DNA of 64,000 nt, from positions 51,212,001 through 51,276,000 of the forward strand of contig CM069142.1 of NCBI GenBank assembly GCA_035221665.1, in the 5' to 3' direction. The notes beneath the pieces are model-generated. The model saw only the letters and a list, made by a program, of their open reading frames with translations, searched no databases and was not told the origin of the DNA. Source of the stretch: Okamejei kenojei (taxonomy: Eukaryota). The translations under genes and the position numbers were made by a program. Of the stretch, positions 33,416-57,861 are shown piece after piece (the first letter of the stretch is position 1; each line of letters opens with the position of its first letter).

Positions 33416-34075
33416 GTACTTCTGACAATGTTTCTATCTTGTTGTTAAATTGTGAGGAAATTAGGAAACCTGCTGCACAACCTCTATCTTCTATTCACAG
33501 TTAATTAATGTTTGTTACTTTTGTGAGACATGTTTGATCGCCTGTATGAATCTTGCATGCAGCAAGTTAAATATATTGACGTAATTTAAAAAAAATGAAC
33601 AGTACATTGCCTAATTCCTTGAAATAGGCATTGCATTCTTTGTAATCTGACTCATTTAACACTGAATTATGAGTGAATAGGAAGCTATTCAATGGTATAA
33701 TGAATAAATTAGATTTATTCTGCAAAGGTATGACATTGTAATGATATAAAAGAAGTGTGCAGAAAATATTGTTGAATAATTGGTGGTGGTACATGTCAGA
33801 GGGTGATAGGTGGAGAGTTGTTTTTCAGGTTGATGGTCTGTAAGATTGGTGCTGGGTCCATTGTTATTTGTCACCTACATTAACAATTGGGATGAGAATA
33901 TAGTTGCATTGTTAGTAAGTTTATGGATGAGACCGAATTGGTGGTACATTGGTGAAGAATGGTGAGATGTAATACAATTAATCATAATGGTAAATAAATA
34001 TATTCATCAAAACAAGTGACTATTTTAATGAGAAATTCAGAATTTTGTATCAGCCTTTTTTTCTTATCCCTTCAG

Positions 34076-34213
34076 TCTAGGCAATGCCACCCTCTAATAC
34101 TACTCATTTCTTCAAATTGCTCTCTAGCTGTAAACTAAAACCCACCAAGCCACCTAATTTATTCAATAGAATTCCAGCATCAGAACGAGCTAACAGGCCA
34201 GTTGATGTTGCAG
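34076..34213 (+). pseudogene. Pseudo-exon or poison exon with in-frame TAG at codon 2, 138 nt
   Basis: Intact ttcAG acceptor and GCAG|gtattt donor, but reads GTC TAG GCA ATG CCA...; the rest is open (MPPSNTTHFFKLLSSCKLKPTKPPNLFNRIPASERANRPVDVA). Confidence 0.7.
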
Positions 34214-34752
34214 GTATTTTGAGGATATTCATGTTTTTTTGTGAACCCAGAGTTGGAGTAGTTGCCTGTTGTGAATTGTGTAAAATAATAGAGCAAGGAC
34301 ATATGCTGTAAATGCTATACCACACTCGGTCACACTTTGTACAGTTAATGTAGGAATTTTAAATGTAGTACTTTTTTCTGTTAGATTATTTGACCAGTGT
34401 TTTTCTTGAAGTTTAAAGAGTGTGCTTGACTGTAAATTTCAGTTTGATACTAAATTTGTTCTAATTGCTGAATAATAATTGGTATTTATATTGTGTTGCT
34501 ACATGGGCTGTCTGCTTATTACCTCTTTCATCAGAAATCTTCAGAAGAATACATTTATTTGGCTGAAAATTAAGTAATGAATTCTTTAGTTATGTATGAA
34601 AATAATTAATTACATAATTTTGGTATTCCATAGCATCCACTTAAATTTACTCTAATGATAAAGGGTGTTTTATTCTACACACTTTTGCATTCTATAAACT
34701 GACATATATGACTATCAATGGTTCAATAGTTGAATGGAACCATTATGGTTAG

Positions 34753-34842
34753 GCCATAACTTCTTGGCCTTTGACTCTCCATATGTGTTCAATCCAAACT
34801 CCAAATCTGTAAAAGCTATAACAAGAGATGCTGATGTTACAA
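34753..34842 (+). CDS. Weak or half-module exon or remnant, 90 nt: GHNFLAFDSPYVFNPNSKSVKAITRDADVT
   Basis: Clear homology to the 3' 90 nt of the module and open, but weak acceptor (ggttAG) and donor (ACAA|gtatta). Confidence 0.35.
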
Positions 34843-35694
34843 GTATTATTGACCATGTTTGCATGTTGATTGTTCGTATTTGTGCTAAATTAAATGTTTA
34901 AACTTCAGCTTAGAAATTCAGTTGCGTGAAAATTGATTGTGTCTTGAGTGCAACACACTTGTGACCATTTCAGGGACAAATATGACCAGCCATTTCCACT
35001 AGTGATTTGATGCTGTTTCCATTATCATTCTGGTGCAATGTCCCTTTAAAGATTTGACCGGCACGAGCTAATACAAACATGTGCCTACCCTTGGGCACAC
35101 TAGGAACAACCAGATTTTTACAATTCTGCTATTTCTTTAATAGCTTGATTTAAAGAAAGCTCTCTTAAATGAAACCCTCCCAACACTAGGAGCCCAATTT
35201 GAGGAGGGGAATATTAATTTAGTTAGCTACCAGTTCTCATCATGCTCTGCCAACCCACCCATCTCACTCAACCAACAGACCCCCAGCCCCTACTCCTTAA
35301 CCAAATGATGACCTTTAGCTAATGTCACACCATTGCCTCATAGCCGCTTCACCTCCCCACTGAATACCAACTCAGCCATGACTTAATTGGACTTTCAATC
35401 CTGCACTCCCAAGACCCTGAAGGGGTGTTCAAATACCATCCTATCCATGTATCCCAATCAGATTCCTACACTCTCTACAACTCAATTAGCTCTGGACACA
35501 TCCCTGCAGCAACTCCCTACCCCTCTCCCTGCTCTGATACAATATTCCTGTCTCCGCCTGTCCATTTTTTTTATCCCTTGAGACACTTCTCCCAGACCCC
35601 AGTCAACCATTGACTTCTCCAAACAGCCAACATCCACATTGCCACACCACTCTTTCTGTTTTCACTCAAGCATCCTGCAAGATGATTCCAAGTG

Positions 35695-36083
35695 AGAAAG
35701 AAGGCATATGATATGCTTGCTGTCATATAGGGGCATTGAGTGTAAGAGTCCGGAGGTCATGATGCAGCTTAAAATTATGAACGGCATAGATAGGATGGAA
35801 AAATCAAATACTAGAGGACCTAGCCTTTCAGGTGAGAGGGGCAAAGTTTAAAGGAGATGTGCGGGGCAGGTTTTTACACAGAGGGTGGTGAGTGCCTGGA
35901 ATACGAAGCCGGGGGGGTAGTGCTTGAGACAAATATGATAGTGGCATTTAAGAGACTTTTGAATCAGCATATGGATAGGCAAGAAATGGAGGGTTATGTA
36001 TTATGTGTAGATAGATAAGAGATTGCCTAGCATCATGTTTGGCTGAAGGGCTTGTTCTTGTGCTTCACTGTTCTATGTTCTAT
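35695..36083 (+). mobile_element. CR1 LINE 3' fragment with internal deletions
   Basis: ggcattgagtgtaagagt, tttttacacagagggtggtgagtgcctggaa, tail ttctatgttctat. Confidence 0.75.
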
Positions 36084-36756
36084 AACAGTTCATGGGCCTC
36101 ACAGCCACACATGAGTGTTTGTGCCTCTTTGTGTACTGATTTTGTTACTCATCAGACGTTTACAAAGTCAAATCCAAAGTGATTGAATTTGTAGACCTTT
36201 GTCTGAAATTTGCATTTAAATGCTGTGTTTATGGTGCATTTGTTAGTTTGTGCGAATCTTTGTTGCAACTCATTCAGTGTCAATTCATACCATATATAAA
36301 GGGAGCAATCCACTGCATATCTGTATTTACCCATCTTGCCTATCTTTGTTGGTTTAGTTTGTCAATGCGCTTACTTATTGACTTTGGAGTTTGTCTGTTC
36401 AGTGTTTGTGAACGGATCATGGTTTTATCGTTGTGAAATTTTTTGAATGATAATTAACTTTGATGTATTGAAACAATATTGCATGGATTACTTGTTGTTA
36501 AGTAATTCATATTTGATGCATTATGAGATGCATGCAATTAATTATTCATTGTTTAGCAGCAAAAGAAAAGAAAAATACTTTTCATAATAAATGGTTGCAC
36601 TTGAATATGTATGTTAATATAATGAACAAATAACCTTTTGGTTTATTTAATATTCTAATGGCTTCGAGGAATCAAACAATATCAGCAAAATAATAAATGA
36701 TTTATTTTAATGAGAGATTAAGAATTTTTGTGTCTGGCTTCTTTCTTATTCCCCAG

Positions 36757-36894
36757 GCGACATGGAGCCAACCGCTGACACTTCTAACATGTTCAGAACA
36801 AGTTCAGGGTCTAAACCACAAATCATTGACACTCCTGTGTTCACTTCGATCCCTGAATCTGTACCAACTAAAATACGAGTTACTGAAGTTACAG
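36757..36894 (+). CDS. Repeat-gene exon, 138 nt: GDMEPTADTSNMFRTSSGSKPQIIDTPVFTSIPESVPTKIRVTEVT
   Basis: tttcttattccccAG acceptor, ACAG|gtattt donor; frame differs from the listed 181-aa ORF. Confidence 0.88.
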
Positions 36895-37529
36895 GTATTT
36901 CTGACAATATTTGTGTCTGAACTTGGGGATGAGGTAAATCATGGTTGCATGTTGAAATTTGTGCTCAAGTGTCTGAAAGTGGAGACACACGCTGCAGTTG
37001 CCATGCCACTCCTTTCTAGTTTAGTGTTCAGTCAGTCTGCGTGGGAGATGTATATGTTAAGTCACTGTCTTGCATGGAATCCATTCATTCCAGTTGCACA
37101 ATTTATATGGAATGAACAATCCACTACAATTCACAAAGACTTGAACCACCTTTGTTTTTTTCTGATGCATTACTTGTCAATGTCCCTTCCTCATCTAGTT
37201 TATAGATTGCACTTGGCTATAATTTGTCATTCATTTCATTAAATCTACTTTACACCAAAGCTTTTCAGATTATCATTGGCTTTTGGGTTGTGGAAGCAAT
37301 GTTATGCATGGACTGTCTGTTGTCATCTCACTCAAGTGCAACATTTTCTGCAAATAATTAATTTGTTAATATGTATGGATTGTTTTATGAAAAGTATATT
37401 GTCAATTTGTGTTTGTGTTGGAATTCCTTTAATGTTTTATCGTAAAGGGAGTATTTATTTTGTGGTACCTTGGGGATGTTTACATGGGAGATGTTTTTAA
37501 AAAATCGTGCTACCTTTTTATTTCCTCAG

Positions 37530-37673
37530 ACCATACAGTATCATCTTCTCAAACTCCTAATGTGGTCACCTTCCTGCCAGGTCATGAGCAGCCAGTGTCT
37601 GACTCTCCTCCACATGTGTTGAACCCAGCCATAAAATCTGAACCATCTAAAATAAGATTTAGTGAAGTCACAG
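37530..37673 (+). CDS. Repeat-gene exon, 144 nt: DHTVSSSQTPNVVTFLPGHEQPVSDSPPHVLNPAIKSEPSKIRFSEVT
   Basis: tttcctcAG acceptor, ACAG|gtactt donor. Confidence 0.88.
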
Positions 37674-38365: not shown

Positions 38366-39055
38366 GGTGCCCAAAAATACTCTATTTGTGGAGTTAACAT
38401 TCTTCATGTGACAATATACATTTTCTCTAGATGCTGCAGTTTATTAGCCCAACTCAAAATGTGCTGAACACAAACTGTTGGTTGAACTCAGCGGGACAGC
38501 AGTATCTGTGAAGGGAAATGGACAGATGATATTTCAGATTGAGGCCCGTCTTCAGCCTGGTGGAGAAGAGGGCAATCACCACAAACCCATCACCTCTTTC
38601 TAGCAGCAATCTCCCCTTCACCCCAGTCCAAGGAAGGGTCCCAACCCAAAACATTCTCCGTCCATTTCCCTCAATGGTTGCTTCCTGACCCCTTGAAATC
38701 CTTCAGCTGTTTGTTTCTTTCTCAAGATTTCAGCATATACAGTCTCGTGTTTCTCAATAAGCGCAATCAATAACTCTAATGTAAGTACTGTAAGTGGCAA
38801 AAGAATGAGAGGCAACTTGTTGGCATGTGTGACTGAGTGTTGTAAGGAAATAAGGGGTGGTATGGAACTGATGGGATCGCTCTGTTAGGTTCCCATATAA
38901 TTCCAATGGGCTGGATGACTTTGTTCCGTACTGTATTAAATCATTAAGTAATGGTAGTGTTCAATGTACTAATGTACATAGGAAACTACAAAGCGTCAGG
39001 TGTACGTTTAAAAGATATTTAGAATTTTGTAATTTGGCTTCCTTTTTATCCTTAG

Positions 39056-39198
39056 AAGACCATGAATTGTCAACTTCTCACACATCTAAAGTGTTCACTT
39101 TAGTATCTGGCCATGAGCAACAAGCCACAGACATTCCCAGAGTGATCAATCCAATCCAGAACCTGATCCTGCTAAGATAGGAGAGGCAGAATTTACAG
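39056..39198 (+). pseudogene. Array exon copy 1, 143 nt, 1-nt deletion frameshift (or assembly error)
   Basis: ccaatccagaacc versus the consensus ccaatcccagaacc; leads to a TAG before the donor. Confidence 0.7.
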
Positions 39199-39678
39199 GT
39201 AGTCCAAACAATATGTGTATTCTATGTTTGAAGTAAACAATAGAGTAAATAATTAAAAGTGCATGCTTAGGTTTATCACAATTAAGGAAATAAATTTGGA
39301 CACGTGCCACAGATGCCATGTTATGCTTTTACAAGAATATTTATGTGAATATTTGTATTGGTTGTGTGTAAGTCGTGGAAGAGCCAGGAAAACACAAACA
39401 TACTGTACCCTTAGATGTCTATCCTTAACTTGCTTCAACATTGTTGGTAACAATGTGAGTGATTGTTGCCAGGAAAAAACAGGCGGTATGGGACTGATGG
39501 AATCGCTCTATTAGGTTCTCGTATAATTCCCATGGGCTGGAAGACTTGTTCCATCGATATAAATAATTAACTAATGGTAGTGTTCAATGTGCTTATATAC
39601 ATAGGAAACTACTCAGTGTCAGGTGTACGTTTGGAAGATATTTCGAATTTTGTAATTTGGCTTACTTTTTATCCTTAG

Positions 39679-39822
39679 AAGACCATGAACTATCAACTTC
39701 TCACACAACTAAAGTGTTCAATTTAATATCTGGCTATGAACGGCAAGCCACAGACATTCCTAGTGTGATTAATCCAATCCCAGAAACCGATCCTACTAAG
39801 ATAGGAGAGGCAGAATTTACAG
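39679..39822 (+). CDS. Array exon 2: EDHELSTSHTTKVFNLISGYERQATDIPSVINPIPETDPTKIGEAEFT
   Basis: tttttatccttAG acceptor, ACAG|gtagtt donor, 144 nt. Confidence 0.9.
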
Positions 39823-40292
39823 GTAGTTCTAACAATATGTGTATTCTATGTTTGAAATAAGCAATGGAGTAAATAATTAAAAGTGCATGCTTAGGTTTAT
39901 CATAATTAAGGAAAAATGTCTGGACAGGTCCCACAGATGTCATGCTAGGCGTTTATGTGAATATTTGTTTTGGTTATGTGTAAGGCATGGAAGAGCATGT
40001 AAAACACAGTATACTGTACACTTAGCTGTCTTTCCTTAACTTGCTTCATCATTGTTGGCAACAATGTGAGAGAGCGCTGCAAGGAAATAAGAGGCGGTAT
40101 GAGACTGATGGGATCGCTCTGTTAGGTTCCCATATAATTCCAATGGGCTGGATGACTTTGTTCAGTACTGTATTAAATAATTAAGTAATGGTAGTGTTCA
40201 ATGTACTAATGTACATAGGAAACTACTAAGCGTCAGGTGTACGTTTACAAGATATTTAGAATTTTGTAATATGGCTTCCTTTTTATCCTTAG

Positions 40293-40436
40293 ACGACCAT
40301 GAATTATCAACTTCTCACACAACTAAACTGTTCACTTTAATATCTGACTATGAACGGCAAGCTACAGACATTCCCAATGTGATCAATCCAAACCCCGAAT
40401 CCGATCCTACTAAGATAGTTGAGACAGATGTTACAG
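40293..40436 (+). CDS. Array exon 3: DDHELSTSHTTKLFTLISDYERQATDIPNVINPNPESDPTKIVETDVT
   Basis: Same splice signals, 144 nt. Confidence 0.9.
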
Positions 40437-40916
40437 GTAGTTCTAACAATCTGTGTATTTTATGTTTGAAGTAAGCATGGAGCAAATAATTAAAAGTGCA
40501 TGCTTATGTTTATCAAAATGAAGGAAAAAAGTCTGGACACGTGCCGCAGATGCCATGTTATGCTTTTACATGAATATTTATGTGAATATTTGTATTGGTT
40601 GTGTGTAAGTCGTGGAAGAGCCTGCAAACCACAAACAAACTGTGCACTTATGGTCTTTCCTTAACTTGCTTCATCATTGTGGGCGACAATGTGAGTTAGT
40701 GTTGCAAGGAAATACGAGGGGGTATGGGACTGATGGGATCACTCTATTAGGTTCTTGTATCATTCAAATGTGCTGGATGATTTTGTTCCATACTGTATTA
40801 ATCAATTATGTAATGGTAGTGTTCAATGAGCTAATATACATAGGAAACTACTTGGCGCAGGTGTATGTTCATAAGATATTTAGAAATTTGTAATTTAGCT
40901 TCCTTTTTATCCTTAG

Positions 40917-41060
40917 AAGACCATGAATTATCAACTTCTCACACAACTAAAGTGTTCAATTTAATATCTGGCTATGAACGGCAAGCCACAGACATTCCCA
41001 GTGTGATCAATCCAATCCCAGAACCCGATCCTACTAACAATGGAGAGACAGATGTTACAG
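40917..41060 (+). CDS. Array exon 4: EDHELSTSHTTKVFNLISGYERQATDIPSVINPIPEPDPTNNGETDVT
   Basis: Same splice signals, 144 nt. Confidence 0.9.
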
Positions 41061-41335
41061 GTAGTTCTAACAATCTGTGTATTTTATGTTTGAAGTAAGC
41101 AATGGAGCAAATAATTAAAAGTGCATGCTTATGTTTATCACAATTGACGAAAAAGTCTGGACATGTGCCGCAGATGCCGGGTATGCTTTTATATAAATAT
41201 TTATGTGAATATTAGTATTGGTTGTGTGTAAGTTATGGAAGAGCCTGGAAAACACAAACTTACTCGACACATAGATATCTTTCCTTGACTTGCTTCTTCG
41301 CTGTTGGCAACAATATGGGAGAGTGTTGCAAGGAA

Positions 41336-42830
41336 CAGGTACTTTGGATCGGATCCTAAAGATTCAGGATCAGTTCCTGTGGGTTGGAGGGTAGCTAATG
41401 TTATCCAACTTTTTAAGAAAGGAGGGAAAGAGAATACAGGGAATTATAGACTAGTTAGCCTGTCGTCGGTGGTGGGGAAGATGCTGGAGTCAATCATAAA
41501 AGATGAAATAGCGGCACATTTGGATAGCAGTAGCAGGGTCGGTCCGAGTCAGCATGGATTTATGAAGGGGAAATCATGCTTGACTAATCTTCTGGAATAT
41601 TTTGAGGATGTAACTGAGAAAATGGATGTAGAGCCAGCGGATGTAGTGTACCTGGACTTTCAGAAAGCATTTGATAAGGTCCCACATAGGAGATTAGTGG
41701 CAACATTAGATCACATGGTATAAGGGTAGGGTGCTGACATGGATAGAAAATTGGTTAGCAGGCAGGAAACAGAGCAGGGATTGATGGGTCCCTTTCAGAA
41801 CGGCAGGCATTGACTAATGGGGTACCGCAAGGTTCGGTGCTGTGACCGCAGCTATTTACAATATATATTAATGATTTAGATGAAGGGATTGAAAGTAACA
41901 TTAGCAAATTTGCAGATGACACAAAGCTGGGTGGCAGTGTGAACTGTGAGGAGGATGCTATGATGATGCAGGGTGACTTGGAGCGTGTGGGTGGGTGGGC
42001 AGATGCATGGCAGATTCAGTTTAATGTGGATAAATGTAAGGTTATCCACATCGGTGGCAGAAACAGGAAGGCAAATTATTACCTAAATGGTGACAAGTTG
42101 GAAAAAGGCGAAGTACAATGGGATCTGGGGAGTCCTTGTTCATCAGTCACTGAAAGTAAGCATGCAGGTACAGCAGGCAGTGAAGAAAGCGAATGACATG
42201 TTGGCCTTCATAACAAGAGGAGTTGAGCTTATGAGCAAAGAGGTCCTTCTGCAGTTGTACAGGGCCATAGTGAGAATACACCTGGAGTACAGTGTGCAGT
42301 TTTGGTCTCCAAATTTGAGGAAGGACATTCTTGCTATTGAGGGAGTGCAGCGTAGGTACACAAGGTTAAATCCCGGGATGGCGGGACTGTCCTATGTTGA
42401 TAGAATGGAGCGGCTGGGCTTGCATACTCTGGAATTTAGAAGGATGAGAGGGGATCATATTGAAACATATAAGATTATTAAGGGTTTGGACACGCTAGAG
42501 GCAGGAAACATGTTCCCGATGTTGGGGGAGTACAGAACCAGGAGCCACAGTTTAAGATTAAGGGGTAAGCCATCTAGAATGGAGATAAGGAAATACTTTT
42601 TCACACAGAGAGTTGTGAGTCTGTGGAATTCTCTGCCTCAGAGGGTGGTGGAGGCCGGTTCTCTGGATGCTTTCAAGAGTTAGATAGAGCTGTTAAAGAT
42701 AGCGGAGCCAAGGGATATGGGGAGAAGGCGGGGTACTGATTGTGGATGATCAGCCATGATCATATTGAATGGTGGTGCTGGCTCAAAGGGCCAAATGGCC
42801 TACTCCTGCACCTATTGGCTATTGTCTGTT
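41336..42830 (+). mobile_element. 5'-truncated CR1 LINE inserted in array intron 4
   Basis: RT motifs GKSCLTNLLE, YLDFQKAFDKVPH, FADD, LEYSVQFWSP; (CTATTGT)-like tail; host repeat resumes with gaaataagaggcggtatg. Confidence 0.95.
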
Positions 42831-42886
42831 GAAATAAGAGGCGGTATGGAACTGATGGGATTGCTCTGTTTGGTTCTCATATAATT

Positions 42887-43705
42887 TTTTTTTTGAACTC
42901 AACATTTATTGACATAACAAAATACAAATACAGACAAAACAAAAAGACACACAAAAGACAATTGCAAAATAACAAAATACAAATCACCTAGCCTCTATTT
43001 GCATCACATCGGATCCTCTTAACATTCTATCATAGAAGCATCTTATTCACAGGCACCACAGCAAGCTCATCCATTCATATCCTTAATCAATCTTGGCATT
43101 TGTAATAGTACCGGTTTCCATATAATATTAAAGGCCTCAGTCCTCAACTGGAGTTTAGCAGTTATACTTTCCATCACGTATACATCTTTCCCGCCACAGT
43201 TGAACATTTGGTGGCATTTCCTTTCTCCATAGCACTGTTATCATCCTTTTAGCAATCAACAGCATCACCCCAAGCAAATATTTCTGATTTTGAATATCTG
43301 TTGCTGCTGGAGTATCTCCTAATATAAAACAAGCCAGTTCCAAAGGTAAATCCACTCCCACAATTAATTTAATCTCTACCTGGATGTCTCTCCAGTATTG
43401 GTACAATTTGGGACAATCCCAAAAAATATGTGTGTGATCACCCCACATTGTCTCCAGCATAAATTTGAGGTGTTACTGTACCTTGCCAACACTAAAGGGG
43501 TCCTAAATACTCTCATTTTAATTTTCCAGTCGAACTCCCTCCAAGAGGGGCTGCTTGTCAGCTTATGGCCCAAGAGACATGTCCTTTCCCATATTTCATC
43601 TGTAATAATAATGTTCATTTCCAATTCCCATTTCTGTTTTGTTTCTATAGTATTTCCTTTTATATAGTCCTTGATATAAATGGGATATCAAGTTATTTTG
43701 TAACA
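42887..43705 (-). mobile_element. 5'-truncated L1-clade LINE with poly(A) and 9-bp TSD
   Basis: T-run at 42885-42894; TSD CATATAATT at 42878-42886 and 43706-43714; ORF2 C-terminal CWRQCG...HTHIFWDCPKL (zf-RVT-like). Confidence 0.9.
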
Positions 43706-43864
43706 CATATAATTCTAATGAGCTGGATGACTGTTCCTTACTGTATTAAATAATGAAGTAATGATTATTTACAATGTGCTAATATTCATAGGAAACTACT
43801 TGGCACAGGTGTACATTCAGAAGATGTTTAGAATTTTGTAACTTGGCTTCCGTTTTATCCTTAG

Positions 43865-44008
43865 AAGACCATGAATTGTCAACTTCTCACACCACTAAAG
43901 TGTTCACTTTAATATCTGGCTACGAACGTCAAGCCACAGACATTCCCAGTGTGATCAATCCAATCCCAGAACCTGTTCCTGCTAAGATAGGACAGGCAGA
44001 ATTTACAG
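43865..44008 (+). CDS. Array exon 5: EDHELSTSHTTKVFTLISGYERQATDIPSVINPIPEPVPAKIGQAEFT
   Basis: Same splice signals, 144 nt. Confidence 0.9.
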
Positions 44009-44493
44009 GTAGTTCCAACATTCTGTGTATTTTATGTTTGAAGTAAACAATGGAGCAAATAATAAAAAAAAGTGCATTCTTAGGTTTATCACAATTAAGG
44101 AAAAAAGTCTGGACACGTGCCACAGATGCCAATGTTATGCATTTACATGAACATTTATGTGAATATTTGGATTGGTTGTGTGTAAGCCCATGGAAGAGCC
44201 TGGAAAACACAAACAAACTGTGCACTTATGGTCTTTCCTTAACTTGCTTCATAATTGTTGGCAACAATGTGAGAGAACGTTGCAAGGAAATAAGAGGCGG
44301 TATGAGACTGATGGGATTGCTCTGTTTGGTTCTCATATCATTCTAATGAGCTGGATAACTTTGTTCCTTACTGTTTAAATAATTAAGTAATGATTATTTT
44401 CAATTAGCTAATATTCATAGGAAAATACTTAGCGCAGGTGTACATTCAGAAGATGTTTTGAATGTTGTAACTTGGCTTCCTTTTTATCCTTAG

Positions 44494-44637
44494 AAGACCA
44501 TGAATTGTCAACTTCTCACACAACTACAGTGTTCTCTATAATATCTGGCTATGAACGGCAAGCCACAGATATTCCCAGTGTGATCAAACCAATCCCAGAA
44601 CTTGATCCTGCTAAAATAGGAGAGGCAGAATTTACAG
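44494..44637 (+). CDS. Array exon 6: EDHELSTSHTTTVFSIISGYERQATDIPSVIKPIPELDPAKIGEAEFT
   Basis: Same splice signals, 144 nt. Confidence 0.9.
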
Positions 44638-45029
44638 GTAGTCCTAACAATATGTGTATTCTATGTTTGAAATAAGCAATGGAGCAAATCATCAAAAGTG
44701 CGTGCTTAGGTTTATCACATTTATGGAAAAAAGTGTGGACATGTGCCACATTTGCCATTATGCTTTTACATGAATATTTATTTGTGATTGGTTGTGTGTA
44801 AGCCCATGGAAGAGCCTGGAAAACACAAACAAACTGCACTTATGGTCTTTCCTTAGTCATTGTGGGCAACAATGTGAGTGAGTGTTGCAAGGAAATACGA
44901 GGGGGTATGGGACTGATGGGATCACTCTATTAGGTTCTCGTATCATTCAAATGAGCTGGATGATTTTGTCCCATACTGTATTCAATAATGATAGTGTTCA
45001 ATATGCTAATATACATAGGAAACTACTTA

Positions 45030-46927
45030 ACCAAAAAGACCACACTGGGAGAAAAGATGAGGTACGAAGATAAGCTAGCTAAGAATATAAAGCAGGATAG
45101 TGAAAGCTTCTTTTGGTATGTGAAGAGGAAAATATTAATTAATACCAAAGTTGGACCCTTGAAGACCGAAAAAAGTGAATTTATTATGAGGAACAAGGAA
45201 ATGGCAGATGAGTTAAACTGGTACTTTGGATCTGTCTTCACTAAGGAGGACACAAACAATCTTCCTGATATAGTAGTGCCCAGAGGATCTGGGGTGACAG
45301 GGGAACTGAAGGAAATCCACATTAGGCAGGAAATGGTGTTGGATAGACTGATGGGACTGAAGGCTGATAAATCCCCAGGGCCTGATGGTCTGCATCCCAG
45401 GGTACTTAAGGAAGTGGATCTGGAAATCGTGGATGCATTGGTGATAATTTTCCAATGTTCTATAAACTCAGGATCAGTTCTTGTGGATTGGAAGGTAGCG
45501 AATGTTATCCCACTTTTTAAGAAAGGCGGGAAAGAGAAAATGGGGAGTTATAGACCAGTTAGCCTGACATCGGTGGTGGGGAAGATGCTGGAGTCAATTA
45601 TAAAAGATGAGATAGCCACACATTTGGATAGCAGTAACAGGATCGGTCCGAGTCAGCATGGATTTACGAAGGGGAAATCCTGCTTGACTAATCTTCTGGA
45701 ATTTGTTTAAGATGTAACTAGGAAAATGGACAAGGGAGAGCCAGTGGATGTACTGTACCTGGACTTTCAGAAAGCATTTGATAAGGTCCCACATAGGAGA
45801 TTAGTGAGCAAAATTAGGGCACATGGTATTGGGGGTAGAGTGCTGACATGAATAGTGAAGTGGTCGGCAGACAGGAAACAAAGAGTTGGGATTAACGTGT
45901 TCCTTTCAGAATGGCAGGCAGTGACTAGTGGGGGTACTGCAAGCCACGGTACTGGGACCGCAGCTATTTACAATATACATCAATGATTTGGATGAAGGGA
46001 TTCAAAGTAACATTAGCAAATTTGCAGATGACACAAAGCTGGGTGGCAGTGTGAACTGTGAGGAGGATGCTATGAGAATGCAGGGTGACTTGGACAGGTA
46101 GGGGGAGTGGGCAGATGCATGGCAGATGAAGTTTAATGTGGATAAATGTGAAGTTATCCACTTTGGTCGCAAAAACAGGAAGGCAGATTACTATCTAAGT
46201 GGCGTCAAGTTGGGAAAAGGGGAAGTACAATGGGATCTGGGGGTCGTACATCAGTCTATGAAAGTAAGCATGCTGGTACAGCAAGCAGGGAAGAAAGTTG
46301 GCCTTTATAACAAGAGGAATCGAATATAGGAGCAAAGAGGTCCTTCTGCAGTTGTACAGAGCCCTAGTGAGACCACACCTGGAGTATTGTGTGCAGATTT
46401 GGTCCCCTAATTTGAGGAAGGATATTCTTGCTATTAAGGGAGTGCAGCATAGGTTTACAAGGTTAATTCCCGGGAAGGCGGGACTGTCATATGCTGAGAG
46501 AATGGCACAGCTGTGCTTGTACACTCTGGAGTTTAGAAGGATGAGAGGGAATCTCATTGAAACATATAAGATTGTTAAGGGCTTGGACACGCTAGAGGCA
46601 GGAAACATGTTCCCAATGTTGGGGGAGTCCAGAACCAGGGGCGACAGTTTAAGAATAAGGGTAAGCCATTTAGAACGGAGACGAGGAAACACTTTTTCTC
46701 ACAGAGAGTGGTGAGTCTGTGGAATTCTCTGCCTCAGAGGGCAGTGGATGCAGGTCCTCTGGATGCTTTCAAGAGAGAGCTAGATAGAGCTCTTAAAAAT
46801 GGCGGAGTCAGGGGATATGGGGAGAAGGCAGGAACGGGGTACTGATTGGGGATGATCAGCCATGATCACATTGAATGGCTGTGTTGGCTAGAGGGGCCAA
46901 ATGGCCTACTCCTGCACCTATTGTCTA
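45030..46927 (+). mobile_element. 5'-truncated CR1 LINE inserted in array intron 6
   Basis: KSPGPDGLHPRVLKE, YRPVSLTSVVGKMLE, FADD; interrupts the host motif aactactta|gcgcaggtgt. Confidence 0.95.
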
Positions 46928-46992
46928 TTAGCGCAGGTGTATGTTCAGAATATATTTAGAATTTTGTAATTTGGCTTCCTTTTTATCCTTAG

Positions 46993-47136
46993 AAGGCCAT
47001 GAATTATCAACTTTACCTACGACTAAAGTGTTCACTTTAATATCTGGCTATGAACGGCAAGCCACAGACATTCCCAATGTGATCAATCCAATCCCAGAAC
47101 CCGATCCTACTAATGTAGGAGAGACAGATGTTACAG
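46993..47136 (+). CDS. Array exon 7: EGHELSTLPTTKVFTLISGYERQATDIPNVINPIPEPDPTNVGETDVT
   Basis: Same splice signals, 144 nt. Confidence 0.9.
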
Positions 47137-47604
47137 GTAGTTCTAACAATATGTGTATTCCATGGTTGAAATAAGCAATGGAGTAAATAATTAAAAGTGC
47201 ATGCTTAGGTTTATCTCAATTAAGGAAAAAAATCTGGACAGGTTCCACAGATGACATGCTAGGCGTTTATGTGAATATTTGTATTGGTTATGTGTGAGTC
47301 AGGGAAGAGCATGCAATACACAGCATACTGTATACTTGGCTGTTTTTCCTTAACTTGCTTCATAATTGTTGGCAACAATGTGAGAGAACGTTGCAAGGAA
47401 ATAAGAGGTGGTATGAGACTGATGGGATTGCTCTGTTTGGTTCTCATATCATTCTAATGAGCTGGATGACTTTGTTCCTTACTGTTTAAATAATTAAGTA
47501 ATGATTATTTTCAATGAGCTAATATTCATAGGAAAGTACTTAGCGCAGGTGTACATTCAGAAGATGTTTAGAATTTTGTAACTTGGCTTCCTTTTTATCC
47601 GTAG

Positions 47605-47748
47605 AAGTCCATGAATTGTCAACTTCTCACAAAACTACAGTGTTCTCTTTAATATCTGGCTATGAACGGCAAGCCACAGACATTCCCAGTGTGATCAAAC
47701 CAATCTCAGAACTTGATCCTGCTAAGATAGGAGAGGCAGAATTTACAG
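47605..47748 (+). CDS. Array exon 8: EVHELSTSHKTTVFSLISGYERQATDIPSVIKPISELDPAKIGEAEFT
   Basis: ccgtAG acceptor, ACAG|gtagtc donor, 144 nt. Confidence 0.88.
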
Positions 47749-48228
47749 GTAGTCCTAACAATATGTGTATTCTATGTTTGAAATAAGCAATGGAGCAAAT
47801 CATCAAAAGTGCATGCTTTGGTTTATCATATTTATTGAAAAAAGTGTGGACATGTGCTACAGATGCCATTATGCTTTTACATGAATATTTATATGAATAT
47901 CTGGATTGGTTGTGTGTAAGCCCATGGAAGAGCCTGGAAAACACAAACAAACTGTGCACTTATGTTCTTTCCTGAACTTGCTTCATCATTGTGGGCAACA
48001 ATGTGAGTGAGTGTTGCAAGGAAATACGAGGGGGTATGGGACTGATGGGATCAGTCTATTAGGTTCTCATATCATTCAAATGTGCTCGATGAAGTTGTTC
48101 CATACTGTATTAAATAATTAAGTAATGGTAGTGTTCAATATGCTAATGTACATAGGAAACTACTTGGCGCAGGTTTATATTCAGAAGATATTTCGAATTT
48201 TGTAATTTGGCTTCCTTTTTATCCTTAG

Positions 48229-48372
48229 AAGACCATGAATTATCAACTTCTCACACAACTAACGTGTTCACTTTAATATCTGGCAATGAACGGCAAGCCA
48301 CAGACATTCCCAGTGTGATCAATCCAATCCCCGAATCCCATCCTACTAAGATAGTCGAGACAGATGTTACAG
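48229..48372 (+). CDS. Array exon 9: EDHELSTSHTTNVFTLISGNERQATDIPSVINPIPESHPTKIVETDVT
   Basis: Same splice signals, 144 nt. Confidence 0.9.
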
Positions 48373-48855
48373 GTAGTTCTAACAATCTGTGTTTTTTATG
48401 TTTGAAGTAAGCATGGAGCAAATAATTAAAAGTGCATGCTTATGTTTATCACAATTAAGGAGAAAAGTCTGGACACGTGCCACAGTTGCCATGGTATGCT
48501 TTTACATGAATATTTATGTGAATATTTGTATTTGTTGTGTGTAAATCATGAGCCTGGAAAACACAAACATACTCTACACTTAGATGTCTTTCCTTAACTT
48601 GCTTCTTCGCTGTTGGAAACAATGTGAGAGCCTGGTGCAAGGAAATAAGAGGCAGTATCAGACTGATGGGATTGCTCTGTTAGGTTCTCATCTCATATAA
48701 TTCAAATGTGCTGGATGATTTTGTTCTATACTGTATTGAATAATTAACTAATGATAAAGTTCAATGTGCTAATATACATAGGAAACTACTCAGTGCAGGT
48801 GTACATTCAGAAGATGTTTGGAATTTTGTAACTTGGCTTACTTTTTAATCCTTAG

Positions 48856-48996
48856 AAGACCATGAATTGTCAACTTCTCGCACAACTACAGTGTTCTCTT
48901 TTATATCTGGCTTTGAGCGGCAAGCCACAGACATTCCTAGTGTGATTAATCCAATCCCAGAACCTGATCCTGCTAAGATAGAGGCAGAATTTACAG
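48856..48996 (+). CDS. Array exon 10: EDHELSTSRTTTVFSFISGFERQATDIPSVINPIPEPDPAKIEAEFT
   Basis: 141 nt with an in-frame 3-nt deletion; missed by the + strand ORF track. Confidence 0.88.
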
Positions 48997-49476
48997 GTAG
49001 TCCTAACAATATGTGTATTCTATGTTTGAAATAAGCAATGGAGCAAATCATCAAAAGTGCATGCTTAGGTTTATCACAATTCAGGAAAAACGTCTGGACA
49101 CGTGCCACAGATGCCATGTTATGCCTTTACATGAATTTTTACGCGAATATTTGTGTTGGTTGTGTGTAAGGCATGGAAGAGCCTGGAAAACACAAACATA
49201 CTGTACCCTTAGATGTCTATCCTTAACTTGCTTCATCATTGTTGGCAATGATGTGAGTGATTGCTGCAAGGAAAAAACAGGCGGTATGGGACTAATGGGA
49301 TCGCTCTATTAGGTATAATTTCCTTGGGCTGGAGGACTGTATAAATAATTATACTGTATAAATAATTATATAATGATAGTGTTCGATGAGCTAATATACA
49401 TAGGAAACAACTTAGCGCAGGTATATGATCAGAAGATATTTAGAATTTTGTAATTTGGCTTCCCTTTTATCCTTAG

Positions 49477-49620
49477 AAGACCATGAATTATCAACTGCTC
49501 ACACAACTCCAGTGTTCCCTTTAATATCTGGCTATGAACGGCAAGCTACAGGCATTCCCAGTGTGATCAATCCAATCCCAGAACCTGATCCTACTAAGAT
49601 AGGTGAGGCAGATGTTACAG
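49477..49620 (+). CDS. Array exon 11: EDHELSTAHTTPVFPLISGYERQATGIPSVINPIPEPDPTKIGEADVT
   Basis: Same splice signals, 144 nt. Confidence 0.9.
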
Positions 49621-50395
49621 GTAGTTCTAACAATCTGTGTATTTTATGTTTAAAGTAAGCATGGAGCAAATAATTAAAAGTGCATGCTTAGGTTTATCAC
49701 AATTAAGGAAAAAAGTCTGGACACGTGCCACAGATGCCAGGTTATGCTTTTACGTGAATATTTATGTGAAAATTTGTATTGGTTGTGTGTAAAGTATGGA
49801 AGAGTCAGGAAAACAAGTCTACTCCACACATCTTTCCTTAATTTGCTTCTTCGTTGTTGGCCAAACCCAGGGCCTTACTATTATTTTCCACATTCCCATG
49901 TTTCCCATTCCACCATGCATGGCCTTGATTTTAGCAAACCTATCCTAAAATACATGCAATCTGTTTGTTCTGTGTTCTGGTACAGATATTGTGAATTGGG
50001 AAGTGCACTGCATATCACCTGGAGTTAAGCATTTTGCTCATGTATGCTGGAATAAATGGGCATATTTCATAAAACTTTGAGTTTGTTTGAGAAGTGATGT
50101 GTTAACCTATTCTGTCGGTGTTTCTTCTGATTTATTGAATTATGATAGCCTCTAAATAATGGATGTAATGTTGCAGTGTGGAGAGTCTCTTGTAATGTCG
50201 TGCGTTAAATTATTTTGAATGATATTGAATTAGTGAACTTAATCAATTATAATGTCGGGGTAGTTTTGTGTTACATAAAATCTGTTTTACCTGTGGCATT
50301 TATTGCTGCATTGGAAACCATCCAATGTAATTGTAATGTTCAATTTTCAACAATAATTATCTAATTTGAACATTTTATATCCAGCTTACTTCCAG

Positions 50396-50542
50396 TACAC
50401 CGGACCGTGTTGCCGACCACTAACATCCCTAACATCTTCTGTTTAATCTCAGACATTAACGTACCTGTCACTGACATTTCAAATGTTCCCAATGCCATCC
50501 ACGCGTCTGACACTACTAAAATAGAAGATACAGAAATAACAG
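50396..50542 (+). CDS. Repeat-gene exon, 147 nt: VHRTVLPTTNIPNIFCLISDINVPVTDISNVPNAIHASDTTKIEDTEIT
   Basis: cttacttccAG acceptor, ACAG|gtattt donor, open, phase 1-1; acceptor appears shifted. Confidence 0.65.
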
Positions 50543-51043
50543 GTATTTCTGATAATGTTTGTGCCTTACTATAAACTGCAACAAGAGCAAAAATAATCTG
50601 CATGTTGAGATGCCTGTTAAAATAACAGGAAATTATTTTTTATGTTGTAGATCTCTCACATTATTTGTGTTGCTCCTGTGTAAAGTATTTAATAGCCAAT
50701 ATAACAGCTTACATAACATAACAGGAAACGACTAATCTTCCATATTGCCTGGGAATTTACTTATACTTGTGCTTGGTTAGTTATTATGTTGCATAGTTCA
50801 AAAAATTCAGATATCACATTTCAACAGGGATGTTAAGGCCTTGGAACCATTAGGAAATAATAAATAGATCTGGTGTAAAGATAGTAGGGATAAGGAGGTT
50901 GTGGTAAGACAGTGGGAGCCATGCAAGATTGCTATGTAATAATGATAATGCTCTATAATGGAATATAATTAATTTATGAAAGTTCATGCATTATCATGCA
51001 AGATTAAGAATTTTGTACCTGGCTTCTTCCTTATCCCGAGCAG

Positions 51044-51175
51044 ACCAGGTGGTGCCAACCTCGGACACTAGTAACGTGTTTACTTTAATGTTAAACCATG
51101 AGCTGCTGGTTACTCATGTGATCGATCCAATCCTAGAATCTCAACGGACTAGAATGAGAGATACAGAAGTTGCAG
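51044..51175 (+). CDS. Repeat-gene exon, 132 nt: DQVVPTSDTSNVFTLMLNHELLVTHVIDPILESQRTRMRDTEVA
   Basis: ttccttatcccgagcAG acceptor, GCAG|gtactt donor. Confidence 0.85.
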
Positions 51176-51776
51176 GTACTTCTGACAATACTTTCACTTG
51201 GGAATTTACCTAATTGCTAGAGTGGCAGATTTTTTGACACAACTATAAATTCTATGCCATAATTTTTCCGTTAAATTAATCTTCAAGTTACTTGTATGTG
51301 AAGTAATTTTATTGCGGAATACATTATCTTGCGTACAATTATTCAGTAACATGCCAAAGCATCTATAAACAATACAGCCCATCGCATATCTCCTCCTGAA
51401 ATGTATGCATTTAGTTTGAGGTTATTTTGACAACAAAAGTATTTCATGGAGTTTTGAGTCCAGAGCAAATCATTGCTGTGTTGTTGGGAAAATTACTTAA
51501 ACAGTAGTTCCATTTGAAAGGTGAAAATTTTGTAACTGTATGTAGTTGTAACATTTTATATGAGTAACTTTGAGAAATACTGATTTAATTGTACAATGCT
51601 GCAACAACAATAGTACCAGAGTCACAATTCATGGTTGCAATGAAATTCACTTAATATTCTCAGAATGAAGAAAGGTTCAGTTTTCCTCCCCATACTGATG
51701 TTGATCAAAACAATGTTTTATTATTTTTGTTAGATAGTAATTAAATTAGACATTTAATTCCATTTTATCTCCTCGG

Positions 51777-51916
51777 GTCATGATGTGATGATCTCTGACA
51801 CTCTAATGCATTAAATTTAATTCCAGTCTTTGAGTATTCAGTCACAAACATTCCTATTATGTTCACTCCAAATCCTAAATCTGTAGTTATTAAGACAGGC
51901 TATATCAAAGTTACAG
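51777..51916 (+). pseudogene. Pseudo-exon: acceptor CAG>CGG, 1-nt deletion, donor GT>GC
   Basis: cctcgg|gtcatgat...ttacag|gcactt; 140 nt; clear homology to the module. Confidence 0.75.
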
Positions 51917-52486
51917 GCACTTCTGATTGAGTATGTAATTAGTGATGGATTGTGAGGTTTGAGCTAAAAAGACAAAGGACATGCGCTGTAGGTGCACTGC
52001 CATTAAAACTATGTTCAAGTTTCCAGTGCATAACAAGTATTTGACAATAATCTGTCTACAGGCAACTGTTCAGTTTCATTGCAAATATTGGAAATGAACA
52101 CACTGTTGCATTTTTCCTGGAAGAGAGCATTTAAATATCTTTGTTGAATTATTTGGCCATGCTTCTTATTAAATGACTTTTAGAGACCCTTGCTTTATCA
52201 GCAAAGCCTATCAACTTATCTTGGCTATATTGTGGCTTGGAGCATCTGTTCTTATATCCGACAATTTGAATAATGTTGAGTTCATGAGGCAATGCATTAT
52301 GTTCATTTGATTTAGCACTTTATGAAAAGTATTATTCATGTTTACATGAGTTTTTAATATTTATTACACTGTAAGAAGACCAGATGTGCTCCATCATTAC
52401 ATAACAATGATGCCTAGCATTTTCAATATTATTCACAGAAACAACATAGATTCAGAAAATAAGAATTCTGTTTTTTATCCCTTCAG

Positions 52487-52627
52487 ACCACGTGGTTTCA
52501 ACTTCTCGCACTCCTAAAGTGCTTACTTTAATATCAGGCCTAAATCCTCTGGTTTCTGATACTCCTAATGTGATCAATCCAATCCCAGAAACTGAGCGCG
52601 CTAAGATAAAAGATGTTGACATTACAG
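52487..52627 (+). CDS. Repeat-gene exon, 141 nt: DHVVSTSRTPKVLTLISGLNPLVSDTPNVINPIPETERAKIKDVDIT
   Basis: ttttttatcccttcAG acceptor, ACAG|gtattt donor. Confidence 0.9.
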
Positions 52628-54298
52628 GTATTTCTGCCAATATTTGTTCCTTGGCTGTTGAGGTATGTGCTAAAGCAATAGAAGTTTAGCACGCATGCTT
52701 TTAATGCTATGCCACACAATCCCCGTGCAATCAGTGTTCACATTGCATGTGTGTAAAATATATCAACATGCTGTCTTGCATGCAGCTCATTTAATGTTGT
52801 GGCAATGTTTATGGGAAATCCACTTCATATTTCTTAAAATTTGTACTTTATGCTTACCTTTGTTAGGTTATTTTGTCAACGTCCTTATCTTACTGAGTTT
52901 AGGGATTGCGTAGCTGTAAAGTGTTTGTTCATTCTCCAATGACAATATTGTTGAAAAGTGTATTAAGTAATAATTAGCTGTGACATAGTGGAAAGTATGT
53001 TGCTCATGAACTCTCTCATTATACCATATATATCAGATTTTATTGGTGTATTATTGAATTAATTAATCAATAATTGGGGCATATTTTTTATTGCGCTGAA
53101 ATCACTGGCTACATGCCCTGGGGTTACACAGTTCCAGCATGGTCCCAGACACAGTGTTCACAAAGTCTCAGCTCCCAGTGCCTTGGCATAACTACCGACT
53201 GAGTCGGTGCATAGACAACTTACTGCACACACAGGATGTCTTTGAAAGCTTATTTAATGTCAGTGTGTCAGCTGTTTTTGACTGAATGTGTTCGGCATTT
53301 GCAAATTGGCAGCAACACTTTGAATTTGTTTAAAAAAAAGTCAATATACATTTGCAAAATAAATATATTACATTTAAGATCCAAAACACATTGACACTCT
53401 AAAAATGAATTTAAGACCCAGCTAAGCTAGACAGAAATTTGCCTGTATTTGGCCCCATATCCCTCTTTCCGTCCATTAGTCTTTCCTATCCATGTACCAA
53501 ATGGTTAGAAAATGTGTAGAGGTTTATGCTACACCATTGGAGTCCATGAAAAGTCAATAGAGGCAACCATTGCGCCTCCTACCCTGTATAGTTTAAACTC
53601 GCTCTCTGATCTAGTATTTAGTAACATTCCTATTGTAATCAATCTAATCCCTAAATGGAAATCATACTAATGGCAATACTTTTGTCTTGAAAATGAGTTT
53701 AAGAATAAATAACCATGTACAGGGAGAGGCTTATGCCAAAGTACCAGATTGTTAAGCAACGTTCTGAAGCTGCTATTCCATGTGTACACTGTTAAATGTT
53801 TGTTTGGATTACTTGTCTGCAAAGTGTCTGTGATTATCCATACACTACCTGCATGGAATTCAACTAGCTCCCAGCTATTCTGTTGTAATGTTTATTAAAT
53901 GATAAATCACTTTTCTGTAGTAGGAACATTGCTGCTGCATGGAGTGTCTGTTGTTTTATTACTCTTTGTGAATATTGTGGTGTTAAAAAGTATTATTCAT
54001 AGTGGAAAAATATTACTGCATGGTTTATCTATTGTCATACCATTTGTTTAAATCATTTTGAGTAACTTGGATTAATTAGGCTTAACATTCGATTAGTTTG
54101 GTACAGTAAAAATGTATTACCAATTAGTGTAGTTCATCACTTGACATGAATGCATTTAGTAATATAGTAGTTAGATTAATTAATCTACGTTGTTGCAATG
54201 TAATAATGTGCAGTAATACAATTGTGTACATCAAAATGATGTAAAAACATTTTCGGGCAAGATTAAAATTTGTACCTGGCTTCTTCTTATTCCCTCAG

Positions 54299-54421
54299 AC
54301 CATGAGGTGCCAACTTCTAACATGTTCAGTTTAATCCCAGACTCTGATCCACCAGCTACTGAATTTCCTAATATCCTCAATCCCATAACCAAGTCTGAAG
54401 ATATAGATATTAAAGTTGCAG
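54299..54421 (+). CDS. Repeat-gene exon, 123 nt: DHEVPTSNMFSLIPDSDPPATEFPNILNPITKSEDIDIKVA
   Basis: ttcttattccctcAG acceptor, GCAG|gtacct donor; indels relative to the module are multiples of 3. Confidence 0.88.
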
Positions 54422-55232
54422 GTACCTTTGATAACGTTTGTGCTTTGAGTGTGTATTGAGAAATAAATTAAATAAGAATAAGTTCATGCTGAGGTTTCTA
54501 TAAAAGTGCCAGAAACTTAGGTCAGATGCTGTACAAGCTTTTACAGTTAAATCTGTGTTAAAGTTGCAAGTATTCATGTATATAACCTGTTTAATGTTGA
54601 GCCAAATTGACATGAACAAGGCAATCCTTGAATTAATAAATATTTTGCTTATCTTCATCAGATGTTGATGTTGGAATCTTAGGCGTGTGATAAAAAAGAC
54701 AGTTAAGAAAAGGAATACTAATGAGAGTAAAGAAGTTTGTTGACAGTAAGGAGAATAGTCTTAGGTAACAGAACAACTTTGATTAACTGGTAAATTGGGT
54801 CTGGTGCTAATAGATGGGATTTAATAATAATAGTTTAATGTGGGGGAGTAAGAGGGTTAGTGAGGATATCGGGAGGGGGGGGGGGGGGTAGTGGGGGAGG
54901 GAGGTGGATCCATCCAATGGATGGCTGCAATATGATGTTTCTAGGCAGCATAGAAGGTTGGAGACCAAGTATTGATAAATGGGATTGGTATGGTTAAGTG
55001 TTTGATGGTTGGTGTCAACCTGATAGGCTAAAAACCTGTTTTTGTGTTGGATGCCTCTATCATTTGAGCAACATTCTTACATGATTGAAGTAGAGGCTTT
55101 GTTTTGTGCTAACCTATCATTGCGACTGGATGGAAAAATTGTGTTTCTCAAATGGCAGCAATCCTGCTCCATGGATTTCCTGGTGCTATATTATGCTTTG
55201 TGAATAATATCAAATTAATTAGGTAAGACATA

Positions 55233-56436
55233 CAGTGCCCTCCATAATGTTTGGGACAAAGACCCATCATTTATTTATTTGCCTCTGTACTACACAATTT
55301 GAGAATTGTAATAGAAAAAAAATCACATGTGGATAAAGTGCACTTTATCAGATTTTACTAAAGGCCATTTTTATACATTTTGGTTTCACCATGTTGAAAT
55401 TAAAGCAGTGTTTAAAATTAAAGCCCCCCCCCCCCCCCCCCCCCAATTTCAGTATGTTTGAGACACAACAATGTCATGCATGCTTAGTATTTTGTTGCAT
55501 AGCCTTTGCATGCAATGACTGCTTGAAGTCTGTGATTCATGGACATCACCAGTTGCTGGGTGTCTTCTCTGGTGATGCTCTGCCAGGCCTGTATTGCATC
55601 CATCTTTAGCTTATGCTTGTTTTGGGGGCTAGTCCTCTATTTCTCTTCAGCATATAAAAGGCATGCTCAATTGGGTTCAGATCGGGTGATTGACGACCAC
55701 TCAAGAATTCACCTTTTTTAGCTTTGAAAAACTCCTTTGTTGCTTTAATGGTATGTTTGGGATCATTGTCTTGCTGTAGAATGAACCACCGGCCAATGAG
55801 TATTGAGGGATTTGTTTGAGCTTGAGCAGGTAGGATGTGTATATACATTTCAGAATTAATTATGCTACTATCATCAGCAGTGTGGTTGCTCTTTTAAGTA
55901 TTTCTTGGCAAACTGTAACCTGGCCATCCTATTTTTGTGGCTAACCTGTGGTTTGTATCTTGCAGTGTAGCGTCTGTATTTCTGTTCATGAAGTCTTCTG
56001 ACGACAGTGGTCATTGACAAATCCACACCTGAAGAGTGTTTTTGATCTGACAGGTGTTTGGGGATTTTTCTTTATTATAGAGAGGAACAGTTGATAAAAA
56101 ACAATAAAAGTTTCCAAAGGTGATGGAAAGACTAGATGCTGAGAGCTCTCTTATACCTGCATTAAGGAGGCAGTTAAACACACCTGAGCAATTACAAACG
56201 CCCGTGAACTCATGTGTCCCAAACATTATGCTGCCCTGAAATGTGGGGACTATGTATAAACACAACTGTAATTTCTACATGGTGAAACCAAAATGTATAA
56301 AAATTGCCTTAAATAAAATCTGACAATGTGCACTTTAACCACATGTGATATTTTCTATTACAAATCTCAAATTGTGGAGTACAGAGGTAAATAAATAAAT
56401 GATGGGTCTTTGTCCCAAACATTATGGAGGGCACTG
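55233..56436 (-). mobile_element. Internally deleted Tc1/mariner transposon with long TIRs
   Basis: TA|CAGTGCCCTCCATAATGTTTGGGACAAAGACCCATC... with its exact reverse complement at the right end |TA; transposase remnant QQDNDPKH and SPDLNPIE on the minus strand. Confidence 0.95.
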
Positions 56437-57860: not shown

Positions 57861-57861
57861 T

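Follow-up and report, generated by a model that had tools for sequence, protein, structure and literature searches.

The window analyzed in this work is a 64,000-nt stretch of the Okamejei kenojei genome (assembly GCA_035221665.1, contig CM069142.1, positions 51,212,001 to 51,276,000 of the forward strand; coordinates below count from its first letter). Self-BLAST and exon calling identified a tandem array at 38817..49861 (+), which consists of 11 homologous units of ~620 bp each, with one exon and one intron per unit. Judging from sequence, the gene that contains this array is the skate ABI3BP/TARSH gene, and the array is part of its central Ser/Thr/Pro/Glu-rich region. In total, 37 central-region exons of this gene are found in the window, including 18 single-copy exons upstream of the array (1743..37673, +) and eight downstream of it (50453..64000, +), and the gene extends past both window ends. 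The array likely arose within the gene, by tandem amplification of a symmetric exon (phase 1 at both ends) together with its flanking intron halves.

For gene identity, a profile of 20 window exons had 18 protein matches, and all 16 of the named ones are ABI3BP/TARSH-type models from sharks or rays. Further searches added proteins of Leucoraja erinacea, Rhinoraja longicauda, Amblyraja radiata, and Heterodontus. In a profile search of 50%-identity representatives, four of the 15 matches were already-named ABI3BP proteins, and the 11 unnamed ones were set aside. Among the named matches of these searches, proteins with the 47–48-residue module are from sharks and rays only. Protein-guided mapping placed the 26 non-array segments of the window in colinear order with skate ABI3BP models at ~91–94% identity. 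The upstream exons are colinear with both skate and ray proteins, and have short modules of ~70–95 nt followed by modules of ~115–145 nt that belong to the same family as the array exon. Counted over 27 matched segments, one of which is a partial duplicate, the single-copy residues differ from those of Leucoraja at 44 of 777 positions (5.7%), from those of Amblyraja at 51 of 856 (6.0%), and from those of Rhinoraja at 76 of 897 (8.5%), which places the window nearer to Leucoraja and Amblyraja than to Rhinoraja. A phase-1 AG acceptor is present in 25 of the 26 non-array segments and a phase-1 GT donor also in 25, with the last segment leaving the window. In the two orthologues scanned, two FN3 domains and TARSH_C (PF21731) scored above the gathering threshold, and all of these domains fall outside the window. 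TARSH_C is also in the precomputed Pfam list for both the Leucoraja and the Heterodontus orthologues. In NCBI, the former is named "mucin-2" and the latter "fibronectin type III domain-containing protein 1-like" (XP_055500958, XP_055500959, XP_055500955). The name "mucin-2" is an annotation error; the protein is ABI3BP. The disordered middle of human ABI3BP is described as alternatively spliced (PMC13518942; PMC9239745), and the protein is described as acting via integrin beta-1 (PMC6426741).

Nine of the 11 array exons are 144 nt long and open, namely copies 2 (39679..39822, phase 1-1), 3 (40293..40436), 4 (40917..41060), 5 (43865..44008), 6 (44494..44637), 7 (46993..47136), 8 (47605..47748), 9 (48229..48372), and 11 (49477..49620), all on the plus strand. 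Copy 10 (48856..48996, +) is also open and has 141 nt due to a 3-nt deletion. Copy 1 (39056..39198, +) has 143 nt, with a 1-nt deletion in a short C run that causes a frameshift and a stop; it is either a true pseudo-exon or an assembly error. The count of ten open exons of 141–144 nt given in an earlier note on this DNA is thus correct. Its statement that intact exons contain a single indel, of 3 nt, is also true, but omits the frameshifted copy 1, with which the exonic indels number two, one of them frame-breaking. As expected for tandem exons, the array exons are adjacent and homologous; all 11 retain AG and GTAGT, and each has phase 1 on either side. Tandem acceptors of the NAGNAG type are found in ten of the 11 exons (e.g., 39676–39681) and not in copy 3; in three Rhinoraja models the distal AG is used in one copy, with the loss of one Glu. 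In the ten open copies, the encoded repeat contains 23.2% Ser plus Thr, 10.0% Pro, and 16% Asp plus Glu, with no Cys or Trp, and it matched no family in Pfam.

The array introns are 455–485 nt long with insertions set aside, and can be aligned end to end. In the self-BLAST of the window, the high-scoring segment pairs of the array reach 2.5 kb at ~85% identity with E = 0, far above chance. Matches to a hidden Markov model (HMM) of the intron core are confined to 38817–49863, where the weakest large piece has an E-value of 1.5e-14. Nothing significant was found with this model elsewhere in the window (best E 0.16). These results agree with the earlier description of 11 units with alignable introns and of flanking exons with diverged introns. 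About 30–40 nt of splice-flanking sequence are common to the array units and the neighboring exons. Both ends of the array carry TTGTTGGC, one 8-bp motif of the unit, such that the array holds a whole number of units. Tandem Repeats Finder did not report the array in the window because its longest allowed period, 500, is shorter than the ~620-bp unit.

The tandem arrangement of 11 units is not contiguous, as the array is interrupted by three retroelement insertions (4,222 bp in total of ~11 kb) that the earlier note did not mention. Insertion 1 (41336..42829, +; ends good to a few bases) is a 5'-truncated long interspersed nuclear element (LINE), which we take to be CR1-like, with an RVT_1 match, stops, and frameshifts. 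Insertion 2 (42887..43714, −) is presumably an L1-like 3' end, and has an AATAAA signal, a poly(A) tail, and a 9-bp target-site duplication. Insertion 3 (45028..46927, +) is a LINE with an RVT_1 match. No Pfam family was matched by either open reading frame (ORF) piece of insertion 2, nor by one piece from insertion 1. Insertions 1 and 3 are 86% identical, yet they are located at different positions of the unit and therefore represent independent insertion events. None of the three insertions was duplicated along with its host unit. The unrelated insertions 1 and 2 are located 57 bp apart in one intron, between copies 4 and 5 (41336–43714), and the LINE family of insertions 1 and 3 is also found at 1–939 and 3004–3210 (~77% identical).

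The number of array copies differs among species, with 11 in the window, 11 in Rhinoraja, 16 in Leucoraja, at least 16 in Amblyraja, and one in rays; the comparison is based on proteins only, those of the other skates being from automatic RefSeq models. Between the same two flanking exons, one copy is present in four of six Hemitrygon models and in all three models of Mobula birostris. Zero copies were found, with the array start motif counted, in Narcine, Mobula hypostoma, and two Hemitrygon models. The three Leucoraja models have 16, 15, and 16 copies, and 16 copies make up one third of the longest of them. Of the 23 Rhinoraja models in the cluster, 15 were listed; 11 copies were counted in 12 of these, 10 in two, and nine in the remaining one. 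The three Amblyraja models have 13, 13, and eight copies with a minimum union of 16, which is a lower bound that does not include the longest isoforms. All 21 skate models counted carry 8–16 copies in series. In a tree of 136 modules (a quick search on 46 columns, with Amblyraja left out), ten window copies, 16 Leucoraja copies, 11 Rhinoraja copies, and the single exons of Hemitrygon and Mobula form one clade with 99 in the Shimodaira-Hasegawa approximate likelihood ratio test (SH-aLRT), and no shark module falls within the skate clade. In Hemitrygon and Mobula, it is a different exon that forms a near-identical run (seven rows, SH-aLRT 96), and this run joins the single-copy downstream exon at 59937 with a support of 86; this exon is the sister of the one amplified in stingray and manta.

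Individual copies can also be followed among skates, and those at the array edges correspond by position. The first three Amblyraja copies are nearest to Leucoraja copies 1, 2, and 3, and the penultimate one is identical to Leucoraja copy 15. Similarly, Leucoraja copies 1, 3, and 15 are the unique nearest neighbors of window copies 1, 3, and 10, and window copy 11 is nearest to the last copy of Amblyraja rather than that of Leucoraja. In their central parts, by contrast, the arrays are not alike. The Leucoraja array has a 4-unit periodicity, with a lag-4 distance of 4.3 residues versus 8–9 at odd lags. In the Amblyraja array, four consecutive copies are identical and a 2-unit repeat is present, although identical runs in automatic models could be artifacts. 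The copy counts in skates and rays indicate that the amplification is skate-wide and was followed by lineage-specific turnover. Rhinoraja is placed in Arhynchobatidae. Leucoraja and Amblyraja belong to Rajidae (PMC8303890). As skates of both families have the amplified array, the amplification probably precedes the split of the families.

The age of the array in O. kenojei bears on the possibility that it is a young, still-expanding coding variable number tandem repeat (VNTR) that is polymorphic in copy number in this species, as the "recent" and "ongoing" expansion of the earlier note would imply. Such an origin is favored by the alignable introns and by a signal of recombination between units: incompatibility between near sites is 0.28 compared to 0.38 when permuted (p = 0.0005, 75 informative sites), and the nearest neighbors switch along the units, which makes past recombination evident. 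Together with the 4-unit periodicity in Leucoraja, this signal upholds the part of the earlier note that attributed growth to recombination. In addition, identical pairs of copies in Amblyraja (seven) and Leucoraja (three) indicate recent turnover in these relatives. However, no two units of the window are identical, as is also the case for the Rhinoraja copies. Whole-unit divergence averages 13.4% over 55 pairs (range 5.9–17.9%; unit identity 82–94%), with copies 6 and 8 as the closest pair, perfect matches between units extend to no more than 87 bp, and 199 singleton variants are found among the 11 units. Units of human intron-bearing coding VNTRs are described as differing at 0.02–3.7% of sites (PMC11201333). 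At the protein level, the window copies differ on average at 21.5% of residues (closest pair ~9%), compared to 15.7% in Leucoraja, 15.6% in Amblyraja, and 18.9% in Rhinoraja. This divergence exceeds that of single-copy exons between genera, although a higher rate of evolution in repeats might contribute to this. A tree built from the DNA of the 11 units has little resolution (one of eight branches starred). On a weakly resolved tree of 47 columns, the window copies do not cluster by species (9 changes versus 9.9 when shuffled, with 140 of 500 shuffles as low), Leucoraja gives 13 versus 13.3, and the Rhinoraja copies do cluster (4 versus 9.9, 0 of 500). Because private substitutions have piled up and the three LINEs were not duplicated, the array in this genome looks old, and its expansion appears neither recent nor ongoing. 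A young VNTR is thus an unlikely explanation. For absolute dating, rates between 1e-10 and 1e-9 per site per year were assumed and gave 305 to 30 million years for the closest pair; such dating was dropped in favor of relative dating only, because the slower rates give implausibly old ages. A shark pedigree rate of 7e-10 per generation has been reported (PMC10587355).

A neutrally decaying duplication, mostly unexpressed and with frames open by chance, was also considered. The substitution data lend this explanation some support. Synonymous divergence (0.146) is close to intron divergence (0.140) and nonsynonymous divergence is 0.10; omega is 0.66 with a bootstrap confidence interval of 0.36–1.23, such that amino-acid constraint is not significant. 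Against 51.8 nonsynonymous, 17.5 synonymous, and 2.8 stop alleles expected from the intron spectrum, 44, 20, and 0 were observed (P = 0.17 and 0.06, not significant), and variant density per site is similar in exons (0.45) and introns (0.49). Moreover, copy 1 is broken, and several older exons of the family have decayed in the window. Indels show a different pattern in the exon–intron comparison that the earlier note had proposed. With one further intronic block (a target-site remnant) dropped, there are 24 intronic gap events (20 not a multiple of three) and two exonic ones (P = 0.027). Frame-breaking indels number 20 in introns versus one in exons (P = 0.02; with copy 1 taken as an assembly error, P = 0.003). 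This deficit, the splice sites intact in all 11 units, the lack of stop alleles, and the modeling of open copies as coding in three other skate genera all argue against neutral decay, which appears quite improbable. The selection on frame claimed previously is thus moderately supported, together with selection on splice sites, and the case for selection on the amino-acid sequence is weak. Alternatively, the array may be a cluster of mutually exclusive exons with one copy per transcript, which would diversify sequence rather than length. Tandem exon duplications are described as often tied to mutually exclusive choice (PMC9013439), and the isoform models vary in the copies that they include. 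However, the serial copies in 21 of 21 skate models, automatic as these are, and the symmetry of the exons, with which joint inclusion stays in frame, make this explanation very improbable. Finally, the homopolymer-type deletion in copy 1 might hint at an assembly artifact. An artifact of the whole array is hardly credible given that all 11 units are distinct and anchored by three unique insertions, and that the array is also found in models of three other skate genomes.

The preferred explanation, an old intragenic amplification maintained in frame, has several points against it, including the non-significant amino-acid constraint and the frameshifted copy 1 described above. The indel test may be inflated by dependence among gap blocks and by the higher homopolymer content of introns. 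For nine of the 11 window copies, the nearest copy is one of Leucoraja rather than a sibling, the two others being a tie and an exception. This argues against recent or ongoing expansion in this genome, but these nearest-neighbor distances are biased downward by consensus-like Leucoraja copies and by the larger pool (16 versus 10). The ray models with zero copies may be skipping isoforms or losses. Inclusion of the array exons is judged from the automatic RefSeq models of other skates, which can mis-assign near-identical exons. Finally, the repeat lies at the boundary of the charge-hydropathy estimate (H 0.452 versus 0.450); the whole central region is on the disordered side by this estimate, and the disorder of the repeat alone is borderline.

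A mechanism can be proposed from the gene identity, the anatomy of the units, the presence of one copy in rays versus 11–16 in skates, the mosaic units, and the differing repeat registers. A founding duplication of ~620 bp may have occurred in the skate ancestor, possibly seeded by the 8-bp motif at the array ends. Units would then have been gained and exchanged, chiefly in the array center, by gene conversion and by unequal crossing-over in registers of one, two, and four units, with the edge copies keeping their places. Due to phase symmetry, any copy number or skipping pattern keeps the frame, and each included copy adds 48 residues. Inclusion of the cassettes would be additive. The repeat region may form an acidic Ser/Thr/Pro-rich spacer, probably extended, O-glycosylated, and mucin-like, which would be located between the N-terminal FN3 and the C-terminal FN3/TARSH_C domains. 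Selection presumably retains splice sites, frame, and rough composition, and the exact sequence only weakly. In the lineage that carries the LINE insertions, turnover may have slowed.

Exons of the same family have also been lost in this window. The exon at 34077..34215 (+) has an in-frame stop; its counterpart in Narcine ABI3BP is coding (51%), and no match was found in the skate models examined. Another at 32496..32612 (+) has a stop and a frameshift, and further decayed or unused relatives are located near 29451, 34760, 51790, 53560, 58787, 59280, and 60700. In total, at least nine such relatives are present in the window, and the HMM scores of most of them far exceed 9.9, the highest reached by shuffled sequence. 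The decayed exons show the end stage of the life of a module. Because the rays amplified another exon and sharks have repeats of their own, the central region of ABI3BP is a recurrent hotspot of exon birth and death. In shark ABI3BP, the repeats seem to alternate between two types, and the module of ~47 residues may have arisen by internal duplication from one of ~30 residues that is still present in sharks. The open exon at 15665–15752 lacks a phase-1 AG acceptor here; it is present in Rhinoraja and ray models and has no match in the Leucoraja and Amblyraja models examined. Its acceptor was possibly lost in Rajidae. An open stretch with a GC donor at 51827–51916 has a 55% match to a ray exon and none in the skate models examined. 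Other features of the window include an inverted repeat pair (55217–55414 and 56257–56452; 89%, 198 bp, ~1.2 kb apart) enclosing an ORF piece at 55606–55893 (−), which we take to resemble a Tc1/mariner transposase, and a perfect intronic minisatellite of 18 bp at 25563–25677 (6.4 copies).

A broader and rather doubtful possibility is that the middle of ABI3BP acts as a recurrently re-tuned molecular spacer. A single module family would have supplied one exon for amplification in skates, another in myliobatiform rays, and a third in sharks, with turnover shut down by LINE insertions here and ongoing in the sister genera. If so, with selection on spacer length or glycan load (e.g., in the matrix of skate cartilage or skin) and tissue-dependent splicing, the gene would amount to an experiment on exon birth and death that nature has replicated. 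The gene also represents a vertebrate example with every stage of this process. Its old modules are diverged, one exon underwent a lineage-specific burst, sister genera carry very young copies of identical sequence, some exons have decayed into pseudo-exons, and the exon that was amplified varies with the lineage. From existing skate genomes and long reads, it could show if the turnover of an array is stalled by retroelement insertions and if selection acts on the length of the ABI3BP spacer.

Macrosatellites have multi-kb, near-identical, polymorphic units. Applied to an array with a ~620-bp unit, 82–94% identity, and three interruptions, this term in the earlier note is overstated. With ABI3BP/TARSH of other vertebrates, the skate gene shares the layout seen in the orthologues (FN3, a low-complexity middle, FN3 and TARSH_C), and differs in the amplification of one exon 11–16 times. 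No paper on elasmobranch ABI3BP repeats was found in a search that reached few subscription papers. A catalogue of alternatively spliced repeats, one third of them disordered, does not mention ABI3BP in its main text, although its supplements may list the gene (bioRxiv 10.1101/2023.04.29.538821). Volatile, disordered, recombining repeats (PMC5100051) and decaying duplicate exons (PMC2718932) have been discussed elsewhere. The repeat has some likeness to mucinization, in which Thr/Ser-rich repeats are acquired, in particular lineages, by a secreted protein rich in proline, and its Ser plus Thr content of 23% is above the 20% used there (PMC9417175). It differs from Pro/Thr/Ser (PTS) domains of mucins in that each repeat is its own exon, is acidic, and has 33% PTS residues, with glycosylation being putative.

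The arrangement of one repeat per exon, which the earlier note regarded as unusual, has precedents. In MaSp2 of Argiope and in flagelliform spidroins, the unit is described as comprising one exon or two, along with a small intron that is repeated, edge introns are handled separately, and unequal crossing-over has been proposed (PMC9779670). The MaSp2 introns are reported to be 94–99.7% identical within a gene, versus 82–94% in the skate array. Recombination is common to both, but the window copies are intermingled with those of other genera rather than homogenized by concerted evolution. In human LPA (KIV-2), DMBT1, and NEB, exons and introns are likewise described as repeated jointly within a gene, with repeats that span splice sites and alter protein length (PMC11201333). 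Those units are 4–10.5 kb long, 0.02–3.7% different, and polymorphic in people, whereas the skate unit is 0.62 kb and 6–18% diverged, beyond near-identity (<~4%). About 10% of animal genes are reported to have duplicated exons, and in OBSCN, NEB, NBPF20, and dumpy most exons of a region are described as homologous through rounds of duplication (PMC9013439), as in the ABI3BP middle. Compared with the tandem exon duplications of that study, use of the skate exons looks additive rather than mutually exclusive, and the module belongs to no Pfam family. Taken together, the mechanism is already known, and the skate array is a further case of tandem exon–intron repeats such as those of LPA, NEB, and spider MaSp2.

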